Source: an uncultured Candidatus Saccharibacteria bacterium
GTDB taxonomy: Bacteria; Patescibacteriota; UBA1384; JAMDBS01; CAYSHH01
Length of the DNA: 45,879 nt
Assembly: GCA_964430945.1 (NCBI GenBank)
Contig: CAYSHH010000007.1
Location: forward strand, 1-45,879
Direction of reading: 5' to 3'
The notes beneath the pieces were generated by a model. That model saw nothing but the letters and a program-made list of their open reading frames with translations. It was not told where the DNA came from and ran no database searches. Shown in pieces: positions 9,887 through 36,585 of this stretch (its first letter is position 1; every line of letters begins with the position of its first letter). Both the position numbers and the translations under genes were made by a program.

Positions 9887-9933
9887 TTATTTTAAAAATC
9901 AATAAACTAAATAACAAGTTTACTAAACAATTT

Positions 9934-10009
9934 GGACGGTTAGCTCAGTTGGTAGAGCATCTCGTTTACACCGAGGGGGTCACAGGTTCGAGTCCTGTAC
10001 CGTCCACCA
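9934..10009 (+). tRNA. tRNA-Val(TAC)
   Basis: GGACGGT/ACCGTCC acceptor, loop TT-TAC-AC, TTCGAGT, CCA. Confidence 0.97.
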
Positions 10010-10557: not shown

Positions 10558-11727
10558 ATGTCAAAAAACAATCTAAAAAACTTTAAATCAATGCAAGATT
10601 TGGTTGAAAAAACCGGATCAAATCTCATTCCCATAAAAAATGGTGAGATGGTTGATGTAAAAATTATTAAGGTTGCCCGTACAAAGATCTTGGTTGATGT
10701 CGCTGGACTAAATACAGGAATAATTCCTGAAAAGGAATTTTCTTCAGATGTGCTTGATCTTAAGACCGACGATATGATACCGGCCTACGTTCTTATGATG
10801 GAAAACGAAGAAGGAAACGTGGTACTTTCATTAAAACGAGCAAGCAAAGAAAGATATTGGCGTATATTAAACGAATCACACAAAGACAGTACTTCCGTAA
10901 AAGTTCGCGTTAAACAAGCCAATAGAGGTGGACTTATCGTTGAATATGGCAACATTGAAGGATTCTTACCAGTATCACAACTTACATCAGATCATTATCC
11001 TAGAGTGGGAGATAGAAAAGATAAAATTCTAGAACATCTCAAAAAGCTTCTCAATAGCTCTCTAAATGTCAAGGTTATTACACTTGAACCAGAAAATTCC
11101 AAAGTAATATTTTCCGAAAAAGAAGCTGGCGATAAGGCACTTGATCAAACACTTGATAAATATAAAGTTGGTCAAAAACTTCTAGGAAAAGTTACCGGCG
11201 TTGTTGATTTCGGTATATTTGTTGATCTAGGTGATATTGAAGGCTTGGTACACATTTCAGAAGTTTCTTGGGATAAGGTTGAAAATCTTAAAAAACTTTA
11301 CAAGCCAGGTGATAAAATTGATGTTGAAGTAATTGATATATCCAATGGTAGAATTTCACTGTCAATAAAAAGACTTAAAAAAGATCCTTGGGTAGACGCC
11401 ATTAAAGATTACGAAGTAAATGACAAGGTAAAAGGTGAAGTGACTAAACTTACCCCATATGGAGCATTTGTACGGATCGATGGTAAATTGAATGCAATGT
11501 TTCACATTTCTGAAATCAATGGCATCAAAGATGAAAACATCAAGAATCTAGAAGATCTTCTTGAAATTGGCAAGAAATATGATTTTAACATCAATAACAT
11601 TGAAAAGAAATCTCATAAGATTAGTCTAAGTTGGCCAACCAAAAAAGAACCTAAATCTCCCGAAAAAACTGAGGCAAAAACCAAGAAGACTAAGGCCAAA
11701 ACTAAAACCAAAATAAAGAAGAAATAA
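10558..11727 (+). CDS. rpsA: 30S ribosomal protein S1 (short, about 4 S1 domains, Lys-rich tail)
   Basis: Repeated S1 motifs GFLPVSQL, FGIFV..GLVHISEVSW, YGAFV..FHISEI; LSLKR/LSIKR. Confidence 0.9.
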   Translation: MSKNNLKNFKSMQDLVEKTGSNLIPIKNGEMVDVKIIKVARTKILVDVAGLNTGIIPEKEFSSDVLDLKTDDMIPAYVLMMENEEGNVVLSLKRASKERYWRILNESHKDSTSVKVRVKQANRGGLIVEYGNIEGFLPVSQLTSDHYPRVGDRKDKILEHLKKLLNSSLNVKVITLEPENSKVIFSEKEAGDKALDQTLDKYKVGQKLLGKVTGVVDFGIFVDLGDIEGLVHISEVSWDKVENLKKLYKPGDKIDVEVIDISNGRISLSIKRLKKDPWVDAIKDYEVNDKVKGEVTKLTPYGAFVRIDGKLNAMFHISEINGIKDENIKNLEDLLEIGKKYDFNINNIEKKSHKISLSWPTKKEPKSPEKTEAKTKKTKAKTKTKIKKK

Positions 11728-28334: not shown

Positions 28335-28480
28335 TATGTTCACTCTCCTTATTTCAAATTTTTATCAAAAAAACTGCATGTTTTTTATATCATTATAATC
28401 ACGCGACCTCGCGTGACTTTATCACTTCCTTTCTTGTTTTTAAAGGACAATGTCCTTTTTTTATTTTCAAACGACGTCAA

Positions 28481-28586: not shown

Positions 28587-28637
28587 CTTAGGTGTACAGA
28601 TATGCACACCTCCGATGTGTGCATATCTGTACACATC
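28587..28637. repeat. REPIN-like doublet, left copy
   Basis: cttag + perfect 18-bp inverted repeat gtgtacagatatgcacac (28592-28609) / 7-nt spacer / gtgtgcatatctgtacac (28617-28634) + atc. Confidence 0.92.
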
Positions 28638-28647
28638 GGTAAAAAAA

Positions 28648-29316
28648 CTATTCTTGCACTAATTTTTTAATATATTGTAATTCTCGTTGATAGTCTGCAT
28701 TGTCTAGTACAAAATTTTCATATTCTTTTGGATTCTTGAAGTAATTATAAATTACTGATTTATCGAGAAAATTAGAATCCTTGGATGATAAATAATCTGA
28801 ATAACTCGACCACATAAATTTTTTATTATCTTTTGCTGAACACATATGTGAAGAAACTGGATTTAAATGTATATACCTTGATACATGGACAAGCTGCTCA
28901 TCATCTTCAATGCGCACAGATTTGAATGAAGATTCAAATAATGTTCCCTTGCGCTTGTACTTTGTATTAAAATACCTAACATAACCATTCTCAACATTTT
29001 TCAAATAAGTAGATACTCCATTCTCTGATATTTGTTTTACGAGTAAATGGAAATGATTGGGCATTAAACAATAACAAATCAATTCAACTATCTTCTGATG
29101 CTTGTTGTTTAATTTTTTAATAATATTTGTTTTTTCTTTTATGTTAGATCTGTAGTAATGAGAAAATCTCATTGGTAAATCCGCAAATCTATAATAATTT
29201 AAAAGATTAAAAAAACGATAATAATCATTTTGGTGACTAAAAATAATATTACGCAATATTCCCCGATTAATTAGGTGATAAATCTCACCGTTTGCAAGTC
29301 CAACTTCTCGTCTCAT
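28648..29316 (-). CDS. REP-associated tyrosine transposase (RAYT/TnpA-REP, Y1_Tnp HUH superfamily)
   Basis: YHLINRG, YCLMPNHFHLLV (HUH), RKGTLFESSFK, SRYIHLNPV (catalytic Tyr), WSSY..YL; ATG at 29316. Confidence 0.92.
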   Translation of the reverse strand: MRREVGLANGEIYHLINRGILRNIIFSHQNDYYRFFNLLNYYRFADLPMRFSHYYRSNIKEKTNIIKKLNNKHQKIVELICYCLMPNHFHLLVKQISENGVSTYLKNVENGYVRYFNTKYKRKGTLFESSFKSVRIEDDEQLVHVSRYIHLNPVSSHMCSAKDNKKFMWSSYSDYLSSKDSNFLDKSVIYNYFKNPKEYENFVLDNADYQRELQYIKKLVQE

Positions 29317-29338
29317 AAATTTATTATACCAAAAAGTA

Positions 29339-29389
29339 CTTAGGTGTGCAGATATGTACACTTCCGATGTGTACATATCTGCACACATC
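29339..29389. repeat. REPIN-like doublet, right copy
   Basis: cttag + perfect 18-bp inverted repeat gtgtgcagatatgtacac (29344-29361) / 7-nt spacer / gtgtacatatctgcacac (29369-29386) + atc. Confidence 0.92.
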
Positions 29390-29503
29390 TTTACGAGCGG
29401 GATTGATTTAAAAAATATCTATTCATATTATTATATTTTTGAAGAAAATTTGGCAAAAAAAGAGAGCCACAAGGGCTCAAACAAATATATGTAGAATGAA
29501 GGG

Positions 29504-30118
29504 TTATCTTACCCAGGACGGTTTTATCTCTCTGTAATAGCCCAGGGTTCTGAAAATTTTCCACTTATTTTGGTCTCCAACTTTGTGCATACCCATTCCT
29601 ACACAGTCGGAACCATCCATTTTATGATACATTAAAAAGAAAATTCCAGGTTCGTCACTCGATTTAAATATCTTCGTGACATGCCAGTCCTCACTAATTC
29701 GACTGGAAATTATTGGATTTATTTCATTTGGTGAGAAGGGCATATGGGCAAATTTTACACCTTTCTCGTCCAATATGCTTACGTCGCAATATTCTGCAGC
29801 TCGGGCCAGATCTCTATTTCTTAGTGCTTCGAAATAGCCTACTGCTACGGCATCAGGATTGCTAAATTGTATTTCGCTGGCTTCCTGTTTCTTTTTCGCT
29901 AGACACTCGCTGCACAGTTCGTAACTGGTTCGAACTGTGTACTGATATGTTTCATCTTCTTGTACATTTTTGGTCTTGATATCTTCTGAGATTAATTTAC
30001 CGCATTGTTTACAAACCGACCTTTCTCCGTAAGTGACTTTTTCTGTGCACCCGCTGGCCATAAAATACATAGCCAGCATCGTGATTAATAACCAAACCTT
30101 AATACTTTTCACATTCAT
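29504..30118 (-). CDS. Putative lipoprotein with CxxC...CxxC segment and NTF2-like C-terminal region
   Basis: Lipobox ASGC, CKQC and CSEC, PDAVAVGYFEAL...D...A..Y; GGAGG SD before ATG 30118. Confidence 0.7.
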   Translation of the reverse strand: MNVKSIKVWLLITMLAMYFMASGCTEKVTYGERSVCKQCGKLISEDIKTKNVQEDETYQYTVRTSYELCSECLAKKKQEASEIQFSNPDAVAVGYFEALRNRDLARAAEYCDVSILDEKGVKFAHMPFSPNEINPIISSRISEDWHVTKIFKSSDEPGIFFLMYHKMDGSDCVGMGMHKVGDQNKWKIFRTLGYYREIKPSWVR

Positions 30119-30223
30119 TTTAAATTCCTCCATTTTTTTAGAACAAAAATTTCTTTTAATTAAGTTAAAAGATAATTATTTTTAACATAAAATTAACATT
30201 TCGTCAATAAAAATATTTTAAAT

Positions 30224-30248
30224 AAAAACCCCTGCAAACATGCAGGGG
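30224..30248 (-). terminator. Intrinsic terminator of the SH3 gene
   Basis: cccctgca-aaca-tgcagggg with T-run on the minus strand. Confidence 0.8.
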
Positions 30249-30266
30249 AAGTATTGTCTATTCGTA

Positions 30267-31031
30267 TTATTTTATTTTTTTGACCCGGCTTTGATGTACA
30301 AAGCCATTTTTTCCAGTTGGGGTAATTATTTTGCACCATTTACCCCACTTGACGATAGCAAATATCTCACCGTCTCTTATTTTTTCAATTATGGAGTGGT
30401 CTTTCCCGGGCCCCGAACGAACATTGGTATAACCGTCTGGATCGCAGATTATTGCTATCGGGAATCTATTTTCTACTACGATTCCCGAATTATTTATTAT
30501 TTTTAGTAGTTCATAGTTGTCTTTATCGGCATATAGCAATCTTATGTATTTTTGATAATTGCTGTCAAAATTGATATCGATCATTATCCTTCCATCTGCC
30601 CGATATGTCCTATACGTATATCGATCGTCGTAGAAAGAATTATCTGCAATATTAAAATCTGAGAATTCTGGGCCGGGGTCAACACCCAGAAATTTCATCT
30701 TTTTAGTCAAATTTACATATATTTTTCCCATGTAATCATGAGCATCATTTCTGACCTTACTCTTGGAATCGAAAACAACATGGCCAGACTTGATGATGAC
30801 CATCCCAGTCTTTTTGATTCGTGACTGCGTCGTGTAGTTGATGGTCACAGTATTATTGCTTACAAAGCAGTTGTAATTGCTCATAGTTCTGGGCTCTTTG
30901 TCGATGACGACTTCATGCCCATTGATGATCATTCTAAATCCGCTTACGTCGTTTTTGATATCGGTTTTTTGCGAAAAGGCAGGGGCTGCACAAAGAAAAA
31001 GAATTGCGAATACTAAAAAAACTTTTTTCAT
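30267..31031 (-). CDS. Secreted protein with C-terminal bacterial SH3 domain
   Basis: Signal peptide ending AFS; DPDGYTNVRSGPG...IIEKI..GE....WCKI....GFVHQSRV. Confidence 0.8.
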   Translation of the reverse strand: MKKVFLVFAILFLCAAPAFSQKTDIKNDVSGFRMIINGHEVVIDKEPRTMSNYNCFVSNNTVTINYTTQSRIKKTGMVIIKSGHVVFDSKSKVRNDAHDYMGKIYVNLTKKMKFLGVDPGPEFSDFNIADNSFYDDRYTYRTYRADGRIMIDINFDSNYQKYIRLLYADKDNYELLKIINNSGIVVENRFPIAIICDPDGYTNVRSGPGKDHSIIEKIRDGEIFAIVKWGKWCKIITPTGKNGFVHQSRVKKIK

Positions 31032-31281
31032 TTTTCATCACCTCAACAATTTTTTAGGGAGCATCTTAACGATGTACAATAATTTATCAAAAATAAATTC
31101 AAGGGTCAACGACAACAGCATAGCTTGATATCACGATCAAGTAAATTACTTACCGATATTTTTAGCATAATAAAAACGCACATTGTCGTGACTTGCGGTA
31201 GAATTCCACAAAAATACCCAATGATAGTAGTTGAAAAATATCAAAAATTACCCTATTGTAGATAATACATAGGAGATTTTT

Positions 31282-32319
31282 ATGCTAGATAAAATTTGGG
31301 GACTTTTCTCACACGATTTAGGGGTAGACCTTGGTACTGCCAATACTTTAGTATACGTCAAAGGCAAAGGCGTAATTATAAATGAACCATCCGTAGTAGC
31401 AATAAATAAAAAAACTAAACAAGTTCTTGCTATAGGAGAGGATGCAAGAAAAATGGTTGGTCGTACACCTGCTCATATTGTCGCCATAAAGCCACTTATT
31501 GACGGAGTAGTGTCTGATTTTGAAGTTACTGAGCAGATGCTTAAACATTTTATTACTCGAGTTCACGAAAAGAAATTTTCGCTGATTCCACGACCAAGAG
31601 TAATCATTGGAATTCCATATGGAGTAACTGAGGTTGAGCAACGCGCAGTTGAAGAAGCGGCATTGAATGCTGGTGCTAGAAAAGTATTTCTTATCGAAGA
31701 ACCAGTTGCAGCGGCAATCGGTGCCAAACTTCCTATTCAGGAAGCAACCGGATCAATGATAGTCGACATTGGCGGTGGTACGACTGAGGTAGCAGTACTT
31801 TCTCTTGGTGGTATTGTCGCATCTCGTTCGCTTCGAATTGCTGGCAATGAAATCGACGAAGCTATCAAAGATTATGTACGCGATAAACTAAATCTTCTTA
31901 TCGGTGACAGAATGACAGAATCAATCAAGGTAAAAATGGCATCCGTTATTCCGTTTAAAGAAACTATTGAGATGCCGATTCGTGGCAGAGATCTATTGTC
32001 TGGACTTCCCAAGGAAATCGTAATATCTGATGAGCAGGTTCGTGAGGCGATAGAAAAACCAGTTAATCTTATTGTTGAATCAATAAAAACTACACTCGAA
32101 GAAACGCCACCGGAATTGGTTGCTGATATTATGCATCAAGGAATCGTACTAGCAGGTGGTGGTGCGCTACTTAGAGGTCTCGACAAGCTAATTGCCGATA
32201 CTACCAAAACTAAAGTTGTTATCGCTGATGATCCAATTACCTCAGTTGTACGTGGTACAGGTGTAGTCCTTGAAGATTTAGACAACCTTAAGGAAGTCTT
32301 GCTTACTACTGACTATTAA
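31282..32319 (+). CDS. mreB: Rod shape-determining actin homolog MreB
   Basis: GVDLGTANT, EPSVVAI, IEEPVAAAIG, DIGGGTTEVA, LAGGGALL. Confidence 0.98.
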   Translation: MLDKIWGLFSHDLGVDLGTANTLVYVKGKGVIINEPSVVAINKKTKQVLAIGEDARKMVGRTPAHIVAIKPLIDGVVSDFEVTEQMLKHFITRVHEKKFSLIPRPRVIIGIPYGVTEVEQRAVEEAALNAGARKVFLIEEPVAAAIGAKLPIQEATGSMIVDIGGGTTEVAVLSLGGIVASRSLRIAGNEIDEAIKDYVRDKLNLLIGDRMTESIKVKMASVIPFKETIEMPIRGRDLLSGLPKEIVISDEQVREAIEKPVNLIVESIKTTLEETPPELVADIMHQGIVLAGGGALLRGLDKLIADTTKTKVVIADDPITSVVRGTGVVLEDLDNLKEVLLTTDY

Positions 32320-32377
32320 AAATAGTATAGATCAACAATCGTTATAAATATTTGATATTAATTAATTTTATTCATTT

Positions 32378-33151
32378 ATGCGCAATTATCGATTTTTAGT
32401 GATAATCGTAATTATTCTAATAATTGGCGCCATGCTATACCCGATCAAACCAATCAAAAATTTTTTTTATACAATAACATCCCCAATTTCTAGCGGACTA
32501 AATCATATATCTAGCTCTATCGGGGGATTTTTTTCTGATCTCGGGTCTATTGGTAGACTTTCAAGAGAAAATCAAAGTCTTACTGAAAAAAATAATCTTC
32601 TTGAGGCTCAGATCGTAGAGTTAGAGGAATACAAACACGAGAATGAAATTCTAAGGAAAGAACTCGATTTCATCGATAGTAAAAAAGAAAAAGATATGAT
32701 TGGCGCAAAAATAATATCGCGCGAAGTATCACCATTTTTACAAACTATACTTATCGACAAAGGACAAAAAGACGGCATAAAGGTTGGGTCAGTTCTGATG
32801 TCCCAAGGGCATTTGGTCGGTATAGTTTCGCAAATATTTGATGATTATTCACAAGCCGAGCTTATTACTAGTACGCAAACAATTGTCCCAGTAATTTTAC
32901 AAGATTCTCGCGCTACTGGACTCATGAAATCGCAGTTGGACGGACTTTATATAGAAGATATTCCGATAGATCAAGATGTCAAAAAGGGAGAGGCAGTTCT
33001 TACTAGTAATCTTAGTGAAAATATTCCTCAGGATATACCTATTGGTACTGTTGATGAAGTTACCAAATACGAATCACAAATATTCCAAACCATCAAAATC
33101 AAATCACCGATCGAATTTTCCAAACTCGAATTTGTTTTTGTAACTAAATAA
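32378..33151 (+). CDS. mreC: Rod shape-determining protein MreC
   Basis: TM, coiled coil (LSRENQSL..ENEILR), IDKGQKDGIKVG, GLVG.V, P.DIPIG.V. Confidence 0.93.
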   Translation: MRNYRFLVIIVIILIIGAMLYPIKPIKNFFYTITSPISSGLNHISSSIGGFFSDLGSIGRLSRENQSLTEKNNLLEAQIVELEEYKHENEILRKELDFIDSKKEKDMIGAKIISREVSPFLQTILIDKGQKDGIKVGSVLMSQGHLVGIVSQIFDDYSQAELITSTQTIVPVILQDSRATGLMKSQLDGLYIEDIPIDQDVKKGEAVLTSNLSENIPQDIPIGTVDEVTKYESQIFQTIKIKSPIEFSKLEFVFVTK

Positions 33152-33157
33152 TTTATT

Positions 33158-33640
33158 ATGAAAACATTAAAAACAATTTTGCTTATTCTACTAGTTTTTT
33201 TTATTGAAGTTGCAATTGCGCCTAATTTGGGAATATATTCTGTATTTCCGAGCACTATGCTTATTGCCATTATGTTTTATTTATTGAACTTTAAATATGA
33301 AGAAGCTCTTTTATGGGCTGGTATCGGAGGAATACTAATGGATCTTTATTCTCCACTTCATTTTGGTGTATATACGTTCAGCTATCTAGTGGTTTATTTT
33401 ATCTCGTACTTGGTATTTACAAAATTTATATCCGAACAAGCATTCTTTGTGGTAATCCCGTCTTTTTTCATAGGTTATCTTTTGGCTGAAATTATTCCGT
33501 TTATGATAGAACATGGTTCGTATTCTATTTATTTTGCATCAGCACTTTATACTGCAATTCTTGGAACGTTCGTATTTTATATATTTACAAACCGTTTTAA
33601 AAAACGCACATCTACCTATGAGCTATCTAGTAAATTATAA
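33158..33640 (+). CDS. mreD: Rod shape-determining protein MreD
   Basis: Polytopic membrane protein after mreC; GGILMDLYS..FG motif. Confidence 0.85.
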   Translation: MKTLKTILLILLVFFIEVAIAPNLGIYSVFPSTMLIAIMFYLLNFKYEEALLWAGIGGILMDLYSPLHFGVYTFSYLVVYFISYLVFTKFISEQAFFVVIPSFFIGYLLAEIIPFMIEHGSYSIYFASALYTAILGTFVFYIFTNRFKKRTSTYELSSKL

Positions 33641-33661
33641 TAATAATTAATATTTATCATC

Positions 33662-35599
33662 TTGTCTATTTTTGAAAACTTCGACAATTTGGGGAAGATC
33701 AAGCAAGATAAGCTCGACTACGAGCATCCATTGACTGATGATGAGCTTACCAATGAAGATGTCGAAGAAAAAACCCAAACCAGCTCATCAATATATATTA
33801 TTGCAATTGTTATATTCGCAGTGTTTTTTATAGGCAGGCTTTTCAATCTACAGATCGTAAAAGGTAATGAAAATCAGTTTTTAGCCGAAGGAAATAGACT
33901 TCGGGTAGAAGAATCCATCGCACCACGAGGTATTATTTTTGATAAAAACAAACAACCTCTCGTCAAGAATGTTCCACTATATAGTTTGGAAATCTATCCA
34001 GTCGATCTACCTAGAGAAAAATCAGAAAGAATTAAAATATACGAATCGCTCAGTGAGTTTCTAGATGAAGACCTAAAGGATATCATTGATGAAGTGGAAA
34101 ATGACAAGCTCTATTCCAACGAGTCTATGATAGTTAAATCGTCTCTTGAGAGAGATGAGGCTATGAAAATGCAAATTTCTCTTAAAGATCTACCTGGTGT
34201 GAGGGTAAATATAATTCCAACTCGCGATTATAAACTAGATGGCGGACTTTCACATATACTTGGATATATCGGAAAAATTACTCAAGATTTCTTAGCTGAA
34301 CACAAAGACAAATATTCGATAAATGATTATATCGGTCAAAATGGACTTGAACTTGCCTACGAAGAATATCTCAATGGTAAAAAAGGTGCCAAAAGAGTCG
34401 AGGTCGATTCTACAGGAAAAATTCAACGAGAGTTAGAAACCAAAGATCCTGTTGCTGGATACGATCTCGTGACCACTCTTGATGCTGGCTTACAAAAAAA
34501 AGCCGAGGAATCACTCAAAAATGAGATCAAGAAATTAGAAGATGATGGCAAAAAAGATGTTAAACATGGCGTAGTTGTGGCTATTGATCCACGTGACGGA
34601 GGAGTACTGGCTATGGTTAGCATCCCCTCGTACGACAACAATAAATTTGCTCAAGGTATCAAAACAGAAGATTATGAAGCAATATTAAATGATGAGGAAA
34701 ATCCGATGCTCAATCGAGCAGTCTCTGGTATCTATCCATCAGGATCCATTATTAAGCCAGTGATAGCAGCAGCAGCATTAGACAAAGGTGTTATCGATGA
34801 AAATACTACGATCAATGACCCAGGTGAAATAAAAATTGGTGAATGGGTATTTCCTGACTGGAAAAATCATGGGTTAGTTGGCGTTAGAAAAGCTATCGCT
34901 GTATCATGTAATGTGTTTTTCTATGCTATCGGCGGTGGATGGGAAAATATCAAGGGGATGGGAGTTGAAGTAATCGATCAATATTTGGACCGTTTTGGAT
35001 TTGGTAAAACGACAGCTATCGAACTACCTGGCGAAGTTGAAGGTAACATACCAACTCCCGAGTGGAAAGAAGAAGCCAAAGGCGAATCATGGTATTTGGG
35101 TGATACATATCATCTAGCTATTGGGCAGGGAGATTTCTTAGTCACTCCACTCCAGATGGTAAATGCAGTTTCTGCTATTGCCAACGGTGGCACACTTTAT
35201 AAACCACACTTTGTATCACAAGTTGTTGATTCCAAAGGAGATGTCATTAGGAAATTTGATCCAGATAAGCTATCTGATTCGCTGGTTGACAATCAATATA
35301 GTATAGAAGTTGTTAGACAGGGTATGCGAGAAGCAGTAGAATCCGATACTGGCTCAGCGCGTCAACTTCAAGATCTTCCGGTCAGCTCAGCTGGAAAGAC
35401 TGGAACGGCCCAATACGACGCCAATGACCTTTCACGATATCATGCCTGGTTTACGGCATTCGCTCCATATGAAGATCCGGAAATTGCCATAGTTGTACTC
35501 GTAGAAAAAGGTGGAGAGGGCAATGAAGTGGCTGAACCAGTCGCCAATGAAATACTTAAATATTACTTTGAAAATAAAGATAACGAGAATAAAGAGTGA
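33662..35599 (+). CDS. mrdA: Penicillin-binding protein 2 (class B transpeptidase)
   Basis: APRGIIFD, R.Y, G.GLE..YE, SxxK (SIIK), SCN, KTGT, AIGQG. Confidence 0.95.
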   Translation: MSIFENFDNLGKIKQDKLDYEHPLTDDELTNEDVEEKTQTSSSIYIIAIVIFAVFFIGRLFNLQIVKGNENQFLAEGNRLRVEESIAPRGIIFDKNKQPLVKNVPLYSLEIYPVDLPREKSERIKIYESLSEFLDEDLKDIIDEVENDKLYSNESMIVKSSLERDEAMKMQISLKDLPGVRVNIIPTRDYKLDGGLSHILGYIGKITQDFLAEHKDKYSINDYIGQNGLELAYEEYLNGKKGAKRVEVDSTGKIQRELETKDPVAGYDLVTTLDAGLQKKAEESLKNEIKKLEDDGKKDVKHGVVVAIDPRDGGVLAMVSIPSYDNNKFAQGIKTEDYEAILNDEENPMLNRAVSGIYPSGSIIKPVIAAAALDKGVIDENTTINDPGEIKIGEWVFPDWKNHGLVGVRKAIAVSCNVFFYAIGGGWENIKGMGVEVIDQYLDRFGFGKTTAIELPGEVEGNIPTPEWKEEAKGESWYLGDTYHLAIGQGDFLVTPLQMVNAVSAIANGGTLYKPHFVSQVVDSKGDVIRKFDPDKLSDSLVDNQYSIEVVRQGMREAVESDTGSARQLQDLPVSSAGKTGTAQYDANDLSRYHAWFTAFAPYEDPEIAIVVLVEKGGEGNEVAEPVANEILKYYFENKDNENKE

Positions 35600-36428: not shown

Positions 36429-36585
36429 CAAAATCACTTCCCGAATCCGGTCAAAAGACCGGAACTGATAAATAAAAAAGAAAAGAGGTGTCAACAATAT
36501 AAATAAACAACACCTTTTTGAGTGTTGTATCGTTGGCACCGACACACTGCCATTGATCAATAAAAAAAATACGGAGGACAAAAAA

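Follow-up and report, generated by a model that had tools for sequence, protein, structure and literature searches.

The 45.9-kb stretch of DNA analyzed here (hereafter the window) carries a single-copy, intact gene for a Y1 HUH nuclease flanked on both sides by related palindromes, a layout that is found throughout a very large family of such genes, mainly from CPR bacteria. We consider it probable that this locus is a resident, single-copy RAYT-type cassette, i.e. a 'REPtron/TIRtron' apparently without a REP family, in which the gene of a class-2 Y1 HUH single-stranded DNA (ssDNA) nuclease is enclosed by its own cognate palindromes. The locus is an ordinary member of its family and belongs to a known kind of domesticated-transposase cassette, rather than constituting a new repeat system. 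Judging solely by the names of the homologues, the chromosome is plausibly of the CPR type.

The nuclease gene lies on the minus strand at positions 28648..29316, with its stop codon at 28648-28650, and encodes a protein of 222 aa. The mechanically delimited reading frame is longer (28648-29388, 246 aa) and begins at an ATG within the right hairpin; because the homologues, of which there are more than 4,387, are 220-226 aa in length and align from the methionine at 29316, the gene was delimited as 28648-29316, and the 24 additional codons at the start of the longer frame are probably spurious. The protein displays an HUH motif (H88-F-H90), a predicted catalytic tyrosine (Tyr148) in a SRYIHLNP motif, a WSSY motif at residues 169-172, an NHFH motif, and an LFE motif at the position where most of the family has LFQ. 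It has the conserved residue in every one of the 34 invariant columns of an alignment of 24 family members; H88-F-H90 and Y148, whose catalytic role is predicted from the motifs, are likewise invariant across the aligned members. The sole Pfam match at E <= 0.01 is to Y1_Tnp (PF01797; 37.3 bits, above the cut-off of 23), and no helix-turn-helix (HTH)-like domain (Bac_DnaA_C, HTH_23 or HTH_28) was recovered in the C-terminal tail, which is predicted to be helical in an AlphaFold model of the 222-aa protein (pLDDT 87.5). The NCBIfam model for RAYTs (NF047646, REP_Tyr_transpos) gives 47.9 bits, below its cut-off of 80. This score counts against a RAYT-type cassette, as does the failure to detect in the tail an HTH domain, which many subclass 2.1 proteins possess. 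PADLOC defence models matched neither this protein nor the neighboring 209-aa protein. A sequence search of the PDB with the single protein returned only a spurious glucanase match, and the family profile matched ISDra2 TnpA (E = 0.003) and 4er8 (E = 0.16) only weakly; a fold comparison was needed to pick the closest known structure. The best PDB match in Foldseek is 4er8_A, the E. coli TnpAREP with its REP hairpin (E = 1.6e-6, target TM 0.70), which outranks the ISDra2, IS608 and IS200 TnpA structures at a sequence identity of ~12%. The claim of an earlier note that the locus encodes an intact RAYT-like HUH nuclease is therefore upheld, with the Y---NP and SS tail motifs placing it in class 2 (Quentin 2018, PMC6006769) and the fold being closest to TnpAREP.

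The palindrome downstream of the gene, the left copy (28587..28637, minus strand), starts 10 nt past the stop codon and reads cttag-GTGTACAGATATGCACAC-ctccgat-GTGTGCATATCTGTACAC-atc in plus-strand order and gat-GTGTACAGATATGCACAC-atcggag-GTGTGCATATCTGTACAC-ctaag on the gene-sense strand. The upstream palindrome, the right copy (29339..29389, minus strand), reads cttag-GTGTGCAGATATGTACAC-ttccgat-GTGTACATATCTGCACAC-atc and gat-GTGTGCAGATATGTACAC-atcggaa-GTGTACATATCTGCACAC-ctaag on the respective strands, and is the counterpart of an R'-H-R element typical of the family. Together with the gene they form a compact unit of ~803 bp, with gene-to-hairpin gaps of 10 and 22 nt. Each 51-nt copy forms a perfect 18-bp stem with a 7-nt loop, having a folding energy as ssDNA of -19.7 kcal/mol (28587-28637) and -19.9 kcal/mol (29339-29389), with z-scores against shuffles of -8.2 and -6.4 and equally good folds in 0 of 200 shuffles; the complementary strands show the same folding behavior. 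The copies are direct repeats with 86% identity over 58 nt (alignment score of 77 in the direct versus 51 in the inverted orientation) and agree in loop and feet. Their arms differ at positions 5 (A/G) and 14 (C/T), and each difference is mirrored in the partner arm such that pairing remains perfect. By our rough estimate the chance of exact compensation for two random one-arm changes is ~7e-4, and alternatively such mirrored substitutions could arise from templated copying inside the hairpin rather than from selection for pairing. In all these respects (two direct doublets, perfect hairpins and mirrored substitutions) the description in the earlier note was confirmed. Because the 18-nt arms are themselves close to palindromic (GTGTRCA-GATA-TGYACAC), either flank also has an alternative fold, a pair of small hairpins side by side. 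The arm pattern is confined to the four arms of the two flanking copies, with 8 matches in the 45.9 kb (both strands summed) versus 0.03 expected by chance. A covariance model (R1), built from the upstream elements of the homologues with 30 seeds, one of which is the window's own upstream palindrome, gives the latter 38.8 bits (minus strand) and 23.6 bits (plus strand), and the downstream palindrome 31.9 and 27.3 bits, respectively. Neither hairpin was called as an intrinsic terminator, with no T-run directly following either stem; no acceptable -10 element of a promoter for the next gene or for an antisense RNA was found in the downstream copy; and tRNAs were the sole Rfam matches in the window.

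Similar flanks are a feature of the entire family. Comparison of the two flanks of 69 homologous loci with those of 248 control ORFs recovered related palindromes on both sides, with significant flank-to-flank similarity, in 64 of the former (93%) and 5 of the latter (2%); the earlier note had regarded a lack of similar hairpins beside homologues as telling against its reading, and they are present at nearly all of these loci. In 720 kb of the relatives' loci 108 of the 120 R1 matches (~90%), as assigned by our own reading of the match table against the gene coordinates, fall on one or the other flank of the Y1 gene, versus a single match in 703 kb of unrelated genomes. The inner hairpin, H, is changed on both sides in 6 of 8 pairs, and its covariation score (0.382 versus 0.159 in shuffles) was matched in 0 of 500 shuffles. 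Paralogues from the same genome are 36-45% identical and each possesses different palindromes. The conserved flank of the family is (A)GGTGT / ACACC(T), with the two bases preceding the AG being variable; its motif as a whole comprises H(CAC..GTG) plus TTGACACC / GGTGTCAA, with no GGGGWSAS. The 5' GT[AG]G foot of RAYT hairpins was sought and is absent: the foot in the window is cttag followed directly by GTGT, and the family motif is AGGTGT/ACACCT. The TTAG that had been likened to a GTAG-type foot is not conserved in the family, and the absence of the GTAG foot counts against the cassette reading. The orientation of the flanks is direct in 26 loci, inverted in 21 and ambiguous in 17; thus, the direct arrangement, which had been compared to IS200/IS605 ends, holds for the window but does not define the family. 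The direct hairpins of the window fit the geometry of IS200/IS605 ends rather than that of a classical REPtron, and this too counts against a cassette.

The evidence on inheritance favors a cassette that has long been resident and is passed on vertically over an active IS200-like element. The protein identity to the closest relative is only ~50%, and the window is syntenic over more than 20 kb with one relative (L187), which has a Y1 gene at the matching place. The divergence of the Y1 protein between the two (54% identity) is like that of its housekeeping neighbors (PBP2 59%, MreC 53%, YceG 52%, RuvX 50%, MreD 41%), and the hairpin stems of L187 are completely different in sequence from those in the window, with flanks that look inverted. 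Beyond this one syntenic pair, the case for vertical inheritance draws on constancy at the population level: three homologues (P0002, P0063 and P0029) occur on 6, 16 and 12 contigs, respectively, always in one context each. The active ssDNA-transposition unit envisaged in the earlier note is on these grounds unlikely. In the form of an IS200-like minimal insertion sequence of ~803 bp, active or only recently fixed, the direct, same-strand subterminal hairpins would mark its two ends, left and right, with movement occurring by single-strand 'peel and paste' as in IS608. The direct hairpins sharing loop and feet, the short gaps within a compact unit and the fold of Y1 HUH transposases are all in line with such an element, as are a few orphan copies in relatives and the differing genomic contexts of the family in different lineages. 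We nevertheless regard it as unlikely: besides the synteny, the housekeeping-like divergence and the single context of each multi-contig homologue, neither the window nor any of the collections searched yielded a second copy of the unit, same-genome paralogues are far from the ~99% identity typical of insertion sequences (Quentin 2018, PMC6006769), the tyrosine motif is the class-2 Y---NP rather than the Y---Q of IS200, and 21 of 69 relatives have inverted flanks.

The same collections bear on the possibility that the 51-nt doublets are genuine REPINs, dispersed elsewhere in the genome and mobilized in trans by a RAYT. Each flank indeed has the shape of a REPIN, being composed of two inverted, individually palindromic 18-mers, the protein is RAYT-like, relatives contain ~1 orphan element per 80 kb, and the flanking 16-mers of Group 1 RAYTs have ~12 occurrences genome-wide (Bertels 2017, PMC5581495). 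However, the 45.9-kb window, which is the part of the genome that the analysis covered, holds no copies beyond the two at the gene and one marginal, diverged orphan. This intergenic element (36487..36541, minus strand; GGTGCCAACGATA - CAACAC..GTGTTG - TTGACACCTC) scores 13.5 bits with the covariance model (E = 0.037), folds weakly (z-scores of -1.6 and -2.3) and is unlike either copy at the Y1 gene in sequence; its membership in the hairpin system is uncertain. A scan of 596 Gb of representative genomes for GTGTRCAKATMTGYACAC gave 95 single matches scattered over unrelated taxa, none of them paired; by our estimate this does not exceed the level of chance, implying that neither the source genome nor a near relative of it is part of that collection. 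The full hairpin had no match in metagenome contigs or in viral contigs, and the latter contained no relatives of the family, giving no sign of phage carriage. The REP/REPIN family proposed in the earlier note was, in short, not found in the window or in the three public collections. Given also that ~90% of model matches in relatives are at the gene flanks, that the GT[AG]G foot is not conserved and that subclass 2.1 is without a REP family in the survey of Quentin 2018 (PMC6006769), a true REPIN-RAYT system appears quite unlikely.

It is also conceivable, though again rather improbable, that the locus is a module for ssDNA excision and integration targeted to the hairpin loop, and a living intermediate between IS200 and the domesticated RAYTs. 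At each end the enzyme would then nick within or next to the loop of inner hairpin H, and the gene unit would be able to exit as a circle; the circle would be resealed as a complete palindrome, and so would the empty site. Tandem duplications of the 'distal flank plus 5' half of H' recur in the upstream flanks of at least 11 of 68 relatives and terminate within or at the loop of H. If correct, loop targeting would explain these duplications, the full R'-H-R orphans as empty sites, and the easy flipping of flanks between direct and inverted; the two complete, direct palindromes of the window would in that case be the excision-competent form.

Regulation of the gene provides a further perspective on the hairpins. 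A consensus scan predicts a sigma-70-type promoter at 29323..29350 on the minus strand: the predicted -35 element (TGCACA, 29350-29345) is contained within the gene-proximal arm of the upstream palindrome, and a 16-nt spacer separates it from a predicted extended -10 element (TGgTATAAT, with the -10 at 29328-29323). The ATG at 29316 is 6 nt downstream of the predicted -10, which implies a leaderless mRNA; both promoter and leaderless start are inferred from these consensus matches. The same geometry recurs family-wide, with TTGACA(CC) situated 35-36 nt ahead of the ATG in most loci, and the overlap of the upstream hairpin with the -35 suggests autoregulation of the Y1 gene. Alternatively, the hairpins might serve the host as common regulatory elements (terminating or insulating the upstream gene, acting as an operator and stabilizing the 3' end) and lack any catalytic tie to a Y1 protein that targets other DNA. 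This reading accords with the position of the upstream hairpin between the terminator-like site of the upstream gene and the Y1 promoter, its overlap with the -35, the position of the downstream hairpin in the 3' untranslated region, and the greater conservation of the R motif upstream, where TTGACA doubles as the -35, than downstream (37 versus 14 of 69 loci), but is very unlikely given the shared sequence of the two flanks in 64 of 69 loci versus 2% of control genes, the palindrome pair particular to each paralogue, the retention downstream of the reverse complement of the -35 motif, which has no promoter role there, and the lack of a canonical T-run or a terminator call at either hairpin.

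For the resident cassette that we favor, TnpAREP and IS608 TnpA suggest a mechanism. By analogy with these two enzymes, the nuclease might recognize the palindromes when they are extruded as hairpins in ssDNA, and nick and rejoin the DNA nearby by means of Tyr148 and the HUH metal site. Such nicking, or hairpin-templated repair, might maintain the two copies alike and perfectly paired, which would account for the mirrored substitutions. Binding of the protein at the upstream palindrome, over the -35, would repress transcription of its own gene, and the downstream palindrome, at the 3' end of the transcript, could act as a stabilizer or a terminator. Mobilization would be rare at most, with the occasional orphans being potentially its products or, alternatively, scars of gene loss between direct repeats.

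What is new here is a variant, occurring mainly in CPR bacteria, of a known RAYT-type cassette, and the novelty is modest. The RAYT literature consulted concerns mostly Proteobacteria, Cyanobacteria and Bacteroidetes, and hairpins beside subclass 2.1 / Group 1 genes are not reported there; the present family, with over 4,000 members mainly in CPR, has hairpins that are nearly universal, paralogue-specific and covarying, and that seem to be integrated into the promoter of the gene itself. It offers a large natural series of matched nuclease/hairpin pairs for testing the co-evolution of Y1 HUH enzymes with their targets, and could illustrate the transition from transposase to resident gene in very small genomes. 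HUH enzymes with new ssDNA specificities are also useful as covalent DNA-protein tags.

Among known systems, the IS200/IS605 family (subclass 1.1, including the TnpA proteins of IS200, IS608 and ISDra2) has the HUH/Y1 fold in common with the window protein, direct, same-strand subterminal hairpins at both ends and, in the case of IS200, a compact unit of ~0.7-0.8 kb with tnpA alone. It differs in its Y---Q motif (versus Y---NP), in its core-only proteins of about 150 aa (versus 222 aa), in its multiple ~99% identical copies as opposed to a single-copy, syntenic gene, and in its short, imperfect hairpins as opposed to perfect 18-bp palindromes, whose counterparts in many relatives are moreover inverted. 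The E. coli TnpAREP (RayT/YafM) REPtron of subclass 2.2 (Ton-Hoang 2012; Messing 2012, PDB 4er8) provides the best structural match and the class-2 Y---NP, and is similarly a single-copy, vertically inherited gene with cognate hairpin flanks, for which co-evolution of protein and hairpin is expected. In contrast to it, the window protein has a greater length, differs in both its N-terminal insertion and its C-terminal tail, is only ~12% identical and falls below the NCBIfam equivalog cut-off; the flanks are direct rather than inverted, there is no GTAG foot, and no genome-wide REP/BIME family was seen in the 45.9-kb window. By motif comparison, the closest systems appear to be the subclass 2.1 / Group 1 RAYTs and the TIRYT 'TIRtrons', names that correspond to one another (TIRYT/'TIRtron' in Di Nocera 2013, PMC3733652; TnpAY1 subclass 2.1 in Quentin 2018, PMC6006769; RAYT Group 1 in Bertels 2017, PMC5581495). 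The window differs from these in that the tail of its protein gave no match to Bac_DnaA_C or an HTH domain, in that its flanks are complete, direct palindromes rather than terminal inverted repeats, and in that they contain H(CAC..GTG) with its accompanying motifs in place of the GGGGWSAS of many TIRs. Furthermore, in the survey of Quentin 2018 (PMC6006769), which names no CPR phylum, REP-like structures were not found in the vicinity of subclass 2.1 genes, whereas 93% of the loci in the clade of the window protein have palindrome flanks. The window nevertheless has the subclass 2.1 motifs NH[YF]H, an F-Q type motif replacing W-Q, Y[IV]HLNP and the SS tail (Quentin 2018 Table 1, PMC6006769), and a comparably long protein (222 aa versus a median of 238). 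As in the TIRtrons, some of whose described TIRs are 'double palindromic', the gene has repeats of its own on either side; as in TIRtrons and Group 1 RAYTs, these repeats are, to judge from the window and the relatives' loci, rarely or only moderately dispersed, and the gene is of low copy number with divergent paralogues in the same genome.

The Y1 HUH nuclease gene lying between the two 51-nt hairpins occupies window positions 28648-29316 on the minus strand and encodes 222 aa, its start being set by homologs of 220-226 aa that align from the methionine at 29316. A mechanical ORF call places the start codon within the right hairpin. This longest ORF is the 246-aa protein recorded in the database for the contig, and its start was probably miscalled, because the 24 additional residues (window 29317-29388) are translated hairpin and are missing from all homologs. 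The window protein scores above threshold with the Pfam Y1_Tnp model, and an alignment of 24 family members shows an invariant HUH motif (H88, H90), SRY148IHLNP signature and W169-S-S triad. PDB searches by sequence alone gave weak matches; an AlphaFold model from this alignment was confident (pLDDT 87.5), and the best fold match of the predicted structure was E. coli TnpAREP with its REP hairpin (4er8_A, E = 1.6e-6, target TM 0.70), followed by the ISDra2, IS608 and IS200 TnpA proteins. By motif comparison, the combination NHFH, LF(E/Q), YIHLNP and SS tail agrees with one row, that of subclass 2.1, in Table 1 of Quentin 2018 (PMC6006769). The identification of the protein as a RAYT in the earlier note is hence favored by the nearest fold and the class-2 motifs, but its match to the NCBIfam REP-associated tyrosine transposase model, at 47.9 bits, falls below the cut-off of 80.

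Re-reading of the window sequence bore out that note's description of both flanks: in plus-strand reading the left copy (28587-28637) is cttag-GTGTACAGATATGCACAC-ctccgat-GTGTGCATATCTGTACAC-atc and the right copy (29339-29389) is cttag-GTGTGCAGATATGTACAC-ttccgat-GTGTACATATCTGCACAC-atc, each with a perfect 18-bp stem and a 7-nt loop. The substitutions at arm positions 5 and 14 are indeed mirrored in the partner arms, a pattern that selection for pairing and templated copying would explain equally well. Since a single arm is nearly palindromic by itself (GTGTRCA-GATA-TGYACAC), "REPIN-like doublet" is a fair name for the hairpin shape. As single-stranded DNA the hairpins have folding energies of -19.7 and -19.9 kcal/mol (z = -8.2 and -6.4), with no shuffled sequence being equally stable, and in the 45.9-kb window the arm pattern is confined to these four arms (0.03 matches expected by chance). 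The two copies are direct repeats, sharing loop and feet, with an alignment score of 77 direct versus 51 inverted.

Similar hairpins are also found beside the homologs, as the earlier reading demanded: the upstream flank significantly resembles the downstream one in 64 of 69 loci, versus 5 of 248 control ORFs from the same loci. In gene sense, the plan common to the family has, upstream, the small hairpin H (xCCACC-loop-GGTGGx) and then an element R (TAGCTTGACACCT..GG), and, downstream, an element R' (CC..AGGTGTCAAGCTA) and then H. Six of the eight H pairs change on both sides, yielding a covariation score of 0.382 versus 0.159 for shuffles, none of 500 shuffles reaching it, and the score drops sharply when the partners are shifted by 1-3 columns. 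In the alignment of flank elements the window element fits this plan, its peculiarity being that R', H and R are merged on both sides into one perfect 18-bp hairpin. At L187, the locus syntenic with the window, the flanks of the gene at 9900-10000 and 10670-10780 both hold perfect palindromes of 20-21 bp, with a stem TTACC(C)ATAATCACACACC... unrelated to that of the window and a compensated insertion/deletion (CCC/GGG vs CC/GG) between the copies. The stems of the two loci are thus entirely different while the copies within each genome are ~90% alike, a sequence signature of concerted evolution in which copies stay alike within a genome and drift between genomes.

Certain flanks carry further duplications. 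At least 11 of 68 relatives (listed loci: L111, L126, L107, L120, L138, L148, L154, L159, L171, L173, L184 and L185) have, just upstream of H, a tandem duplication of the distal flank and the 5' half of H with a period of 13-20 nt, its junction lying in or at the H loop; downstream, the mirror-image duplication is seen at L111 and L126, and the window has none. The duplications may have been left by nicking or joining at the loop, or may be iteron-like sites for binding. The Y1 gene of L158 is bracketed by an exact direct repeat of 63 nt (~830-880 and 1555-1620) that ends in CCCATG and so may be a copy of the promoter and start region; this duplication may be genuine or an artefact of assembly.

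The direct orientation had been likened to the ends of IS200/IS605 elements, and together with the compactness of the unit it might suggest an active IS200-like element. The copies in the window are indeed direct, but this is weak evidence alone: the flanks of relatives include 26 direct and 21 inverted pairs, with 17 too palindromic for a call, and those of L187 appear inverted, with the central base as the sole criterion. Direct orientation is not a family character because relatives mix both states. An active IS200-like element is further countered by the single copy, the class-2 motif and synteny with a relative, and we regard it as unlikely. The contig of the closest homolog (P0002, 54% identity) is syntenic with the window across >20 kb, and its neighboring products show comparable identities (MreB 83%, PBP2 59%, MreC 53%, a 561-aa protein 53%, YceG 52%, RuvX 50%, MreD 41% and an SH3 protein 33%). 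The Y1 gene has thus diverged at the pace of its housekeeping neighbors while keeping its chromosomal place, which points to a resident rather than a jumping gene. The window itself is ordinary chromosome, encoding MreB, PBP2, SecA, a class II aminoacyl-tRNA synthetase, an ABC-F protein and seven tRNAs. Two other homologs, P0063 (16 contigs) and P0029 (12 contigs), each retain one genomic context across many samples, and no homologs were found in the viral collection. A second Y1 copy within 10 kb is rare (3 of 83 sequences searched, i.e. 82 loci and the window), and such copies are paralogs, 36-45% identical, each with its own different palindromes. Two such genomes, L148 (9992-10636 and 13510-14160) and L155 (72-716 and 9992-10657), carry two paralogs 3-9 kb apart that are 42-45% identical and surrounded by distinct palindromes. 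In four loci (L146 5043-10612, L156 5839-10624, L187 and window 28648-35599) a PBP2 gene is found at most a few kb from the Y1 gene, and three of these also have mreB nearby, in differing arrangements, which may reflect old linkage or mere chance.

A true REPIN system, with hairpins dispersed elsewhere in the genome, is less probable again, as neither the 46-kb window nor the flanks of relatives support it. A covariance model of H and R matched the two flanks, each on both strands, and otherwise recovered a single marginal orphan in the window (36479-36548, minus strand; GGTGCCAACGATA - CAACAC..GTGTTG - TTGACACCTC; 13.5 bits, E = 0.037, weak fold). It is intergenic, ~7 kb from the Y1 gene and closer to the family consensus than to the window hairpins, and could be the relic of a lost paralog or a solo scar. 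Of 120 matches in the relatives' loci (720 kb), 108 fall at Y1 flanks, judged by eye from the hit table against gene coordinates, and the other 12 in nine orphan places; 703 kb of unrelated genomes gave one match. Family elements are therefore dispersed, but thinly, with about one orphan in every 80 kb. Solitary elements away from Y1 genes occur at L108 1388-1446 (~90% identical to the downstream copy of that locus's Y1 gene), L100 657-712, L185 20350-20392, L184 6123-6166 and L140 2997-3028.

The upstream palindrome also appears to house a promoter. A consensus-like site on the minus strand (29350-29323; TGCACA, 16 nt, TATAAT preceded by TG) ends 6 nt before the Y1 ATG, which lacks a Shine-Dalgarno sequence, and in most family loci the TTGACA(CC) of R is found 35-36 nt upstream of the ATG, with a -10-like hexamer ending ~6 nt before it. 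From these spacings we infer a leaderless mRNA and a -35 element lying within the upstream palindrome, so that a protein binding the palindrome would repress its own gene. R is conserved upstream in 37 of 69 loci and downstream in 14 of 69, which fits a dual role of the upstream copy; retention of its reverse complement downstream, without a promoter role, argues for an additional role of the motif in recognition. Purely regulatory hairpins are the least probable reading, as they leave unexplained the cognate pairs that differ between paralogs. Both cassette neighbors lie on the same strand, namely a gene for a protein of 209 aa, with a terminator-like site after it (29478-29464), and a CarboxypepD_reg/PEGA protein gene with a promoter-like site (28509-28481). 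Downstream of the latter site, the putative 5' leader holds two further structures (28399-28416 and 28442-28458) unrelated to the Y1 hairpins, namely the perfect, GC-rich palindrome TCACGCGA-cc-TCGCGTGA and a hairpin that resembles a terminator and has a T-run.

Thus, the cassette is most likely a resident RAYT-type unit. By analogy with TnpAREP and IS608 TnpA, the nuclease would bind its own flanking palindromes as hairpins on single-stranded DNA, and then nick and rejoin nearby; such nicking and rejoining, or hairpin-templated repair, might keep the copies alike in each genome and let them drift freely between genomes.

Units of this kind are already known as REPtron and TIRtron cassettes, and the window instance is an ordinary member of its family; the interest is moderate and lies at the family level. 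The family has >4,387 members, those named being nearly all CPR Microgenomates (e.g. Daviesbacteria, Levybacteria, Curtissbacteria and Gottesmanbacteria). The literature searched yielded no papers on RAYTs in CPR, which are absent from the discussion in two family surveys (Bertels 2017, PMC5581495; Quentin 2018, PMC6006769). Subclass 2.1 of the latter corresponds to Group 1 of Bertels and most of the TIRYTs of Di Nocera 2013 (PMC3733652). Conserved, covarying hairpins adjoin the subclass-2.1-type proteins described here, whereas none were found for that subclass by Quentin 2018, and the flank motif is other than the GGGGWSAS of the TIRYTs. Unlike the known REPtrons and TIRtrons, this clade belongs largely to CPR bacteria, combines direct and inverted flanks within one family, and apparently embeds the promoter of the nuclease gene in the repeat itself.
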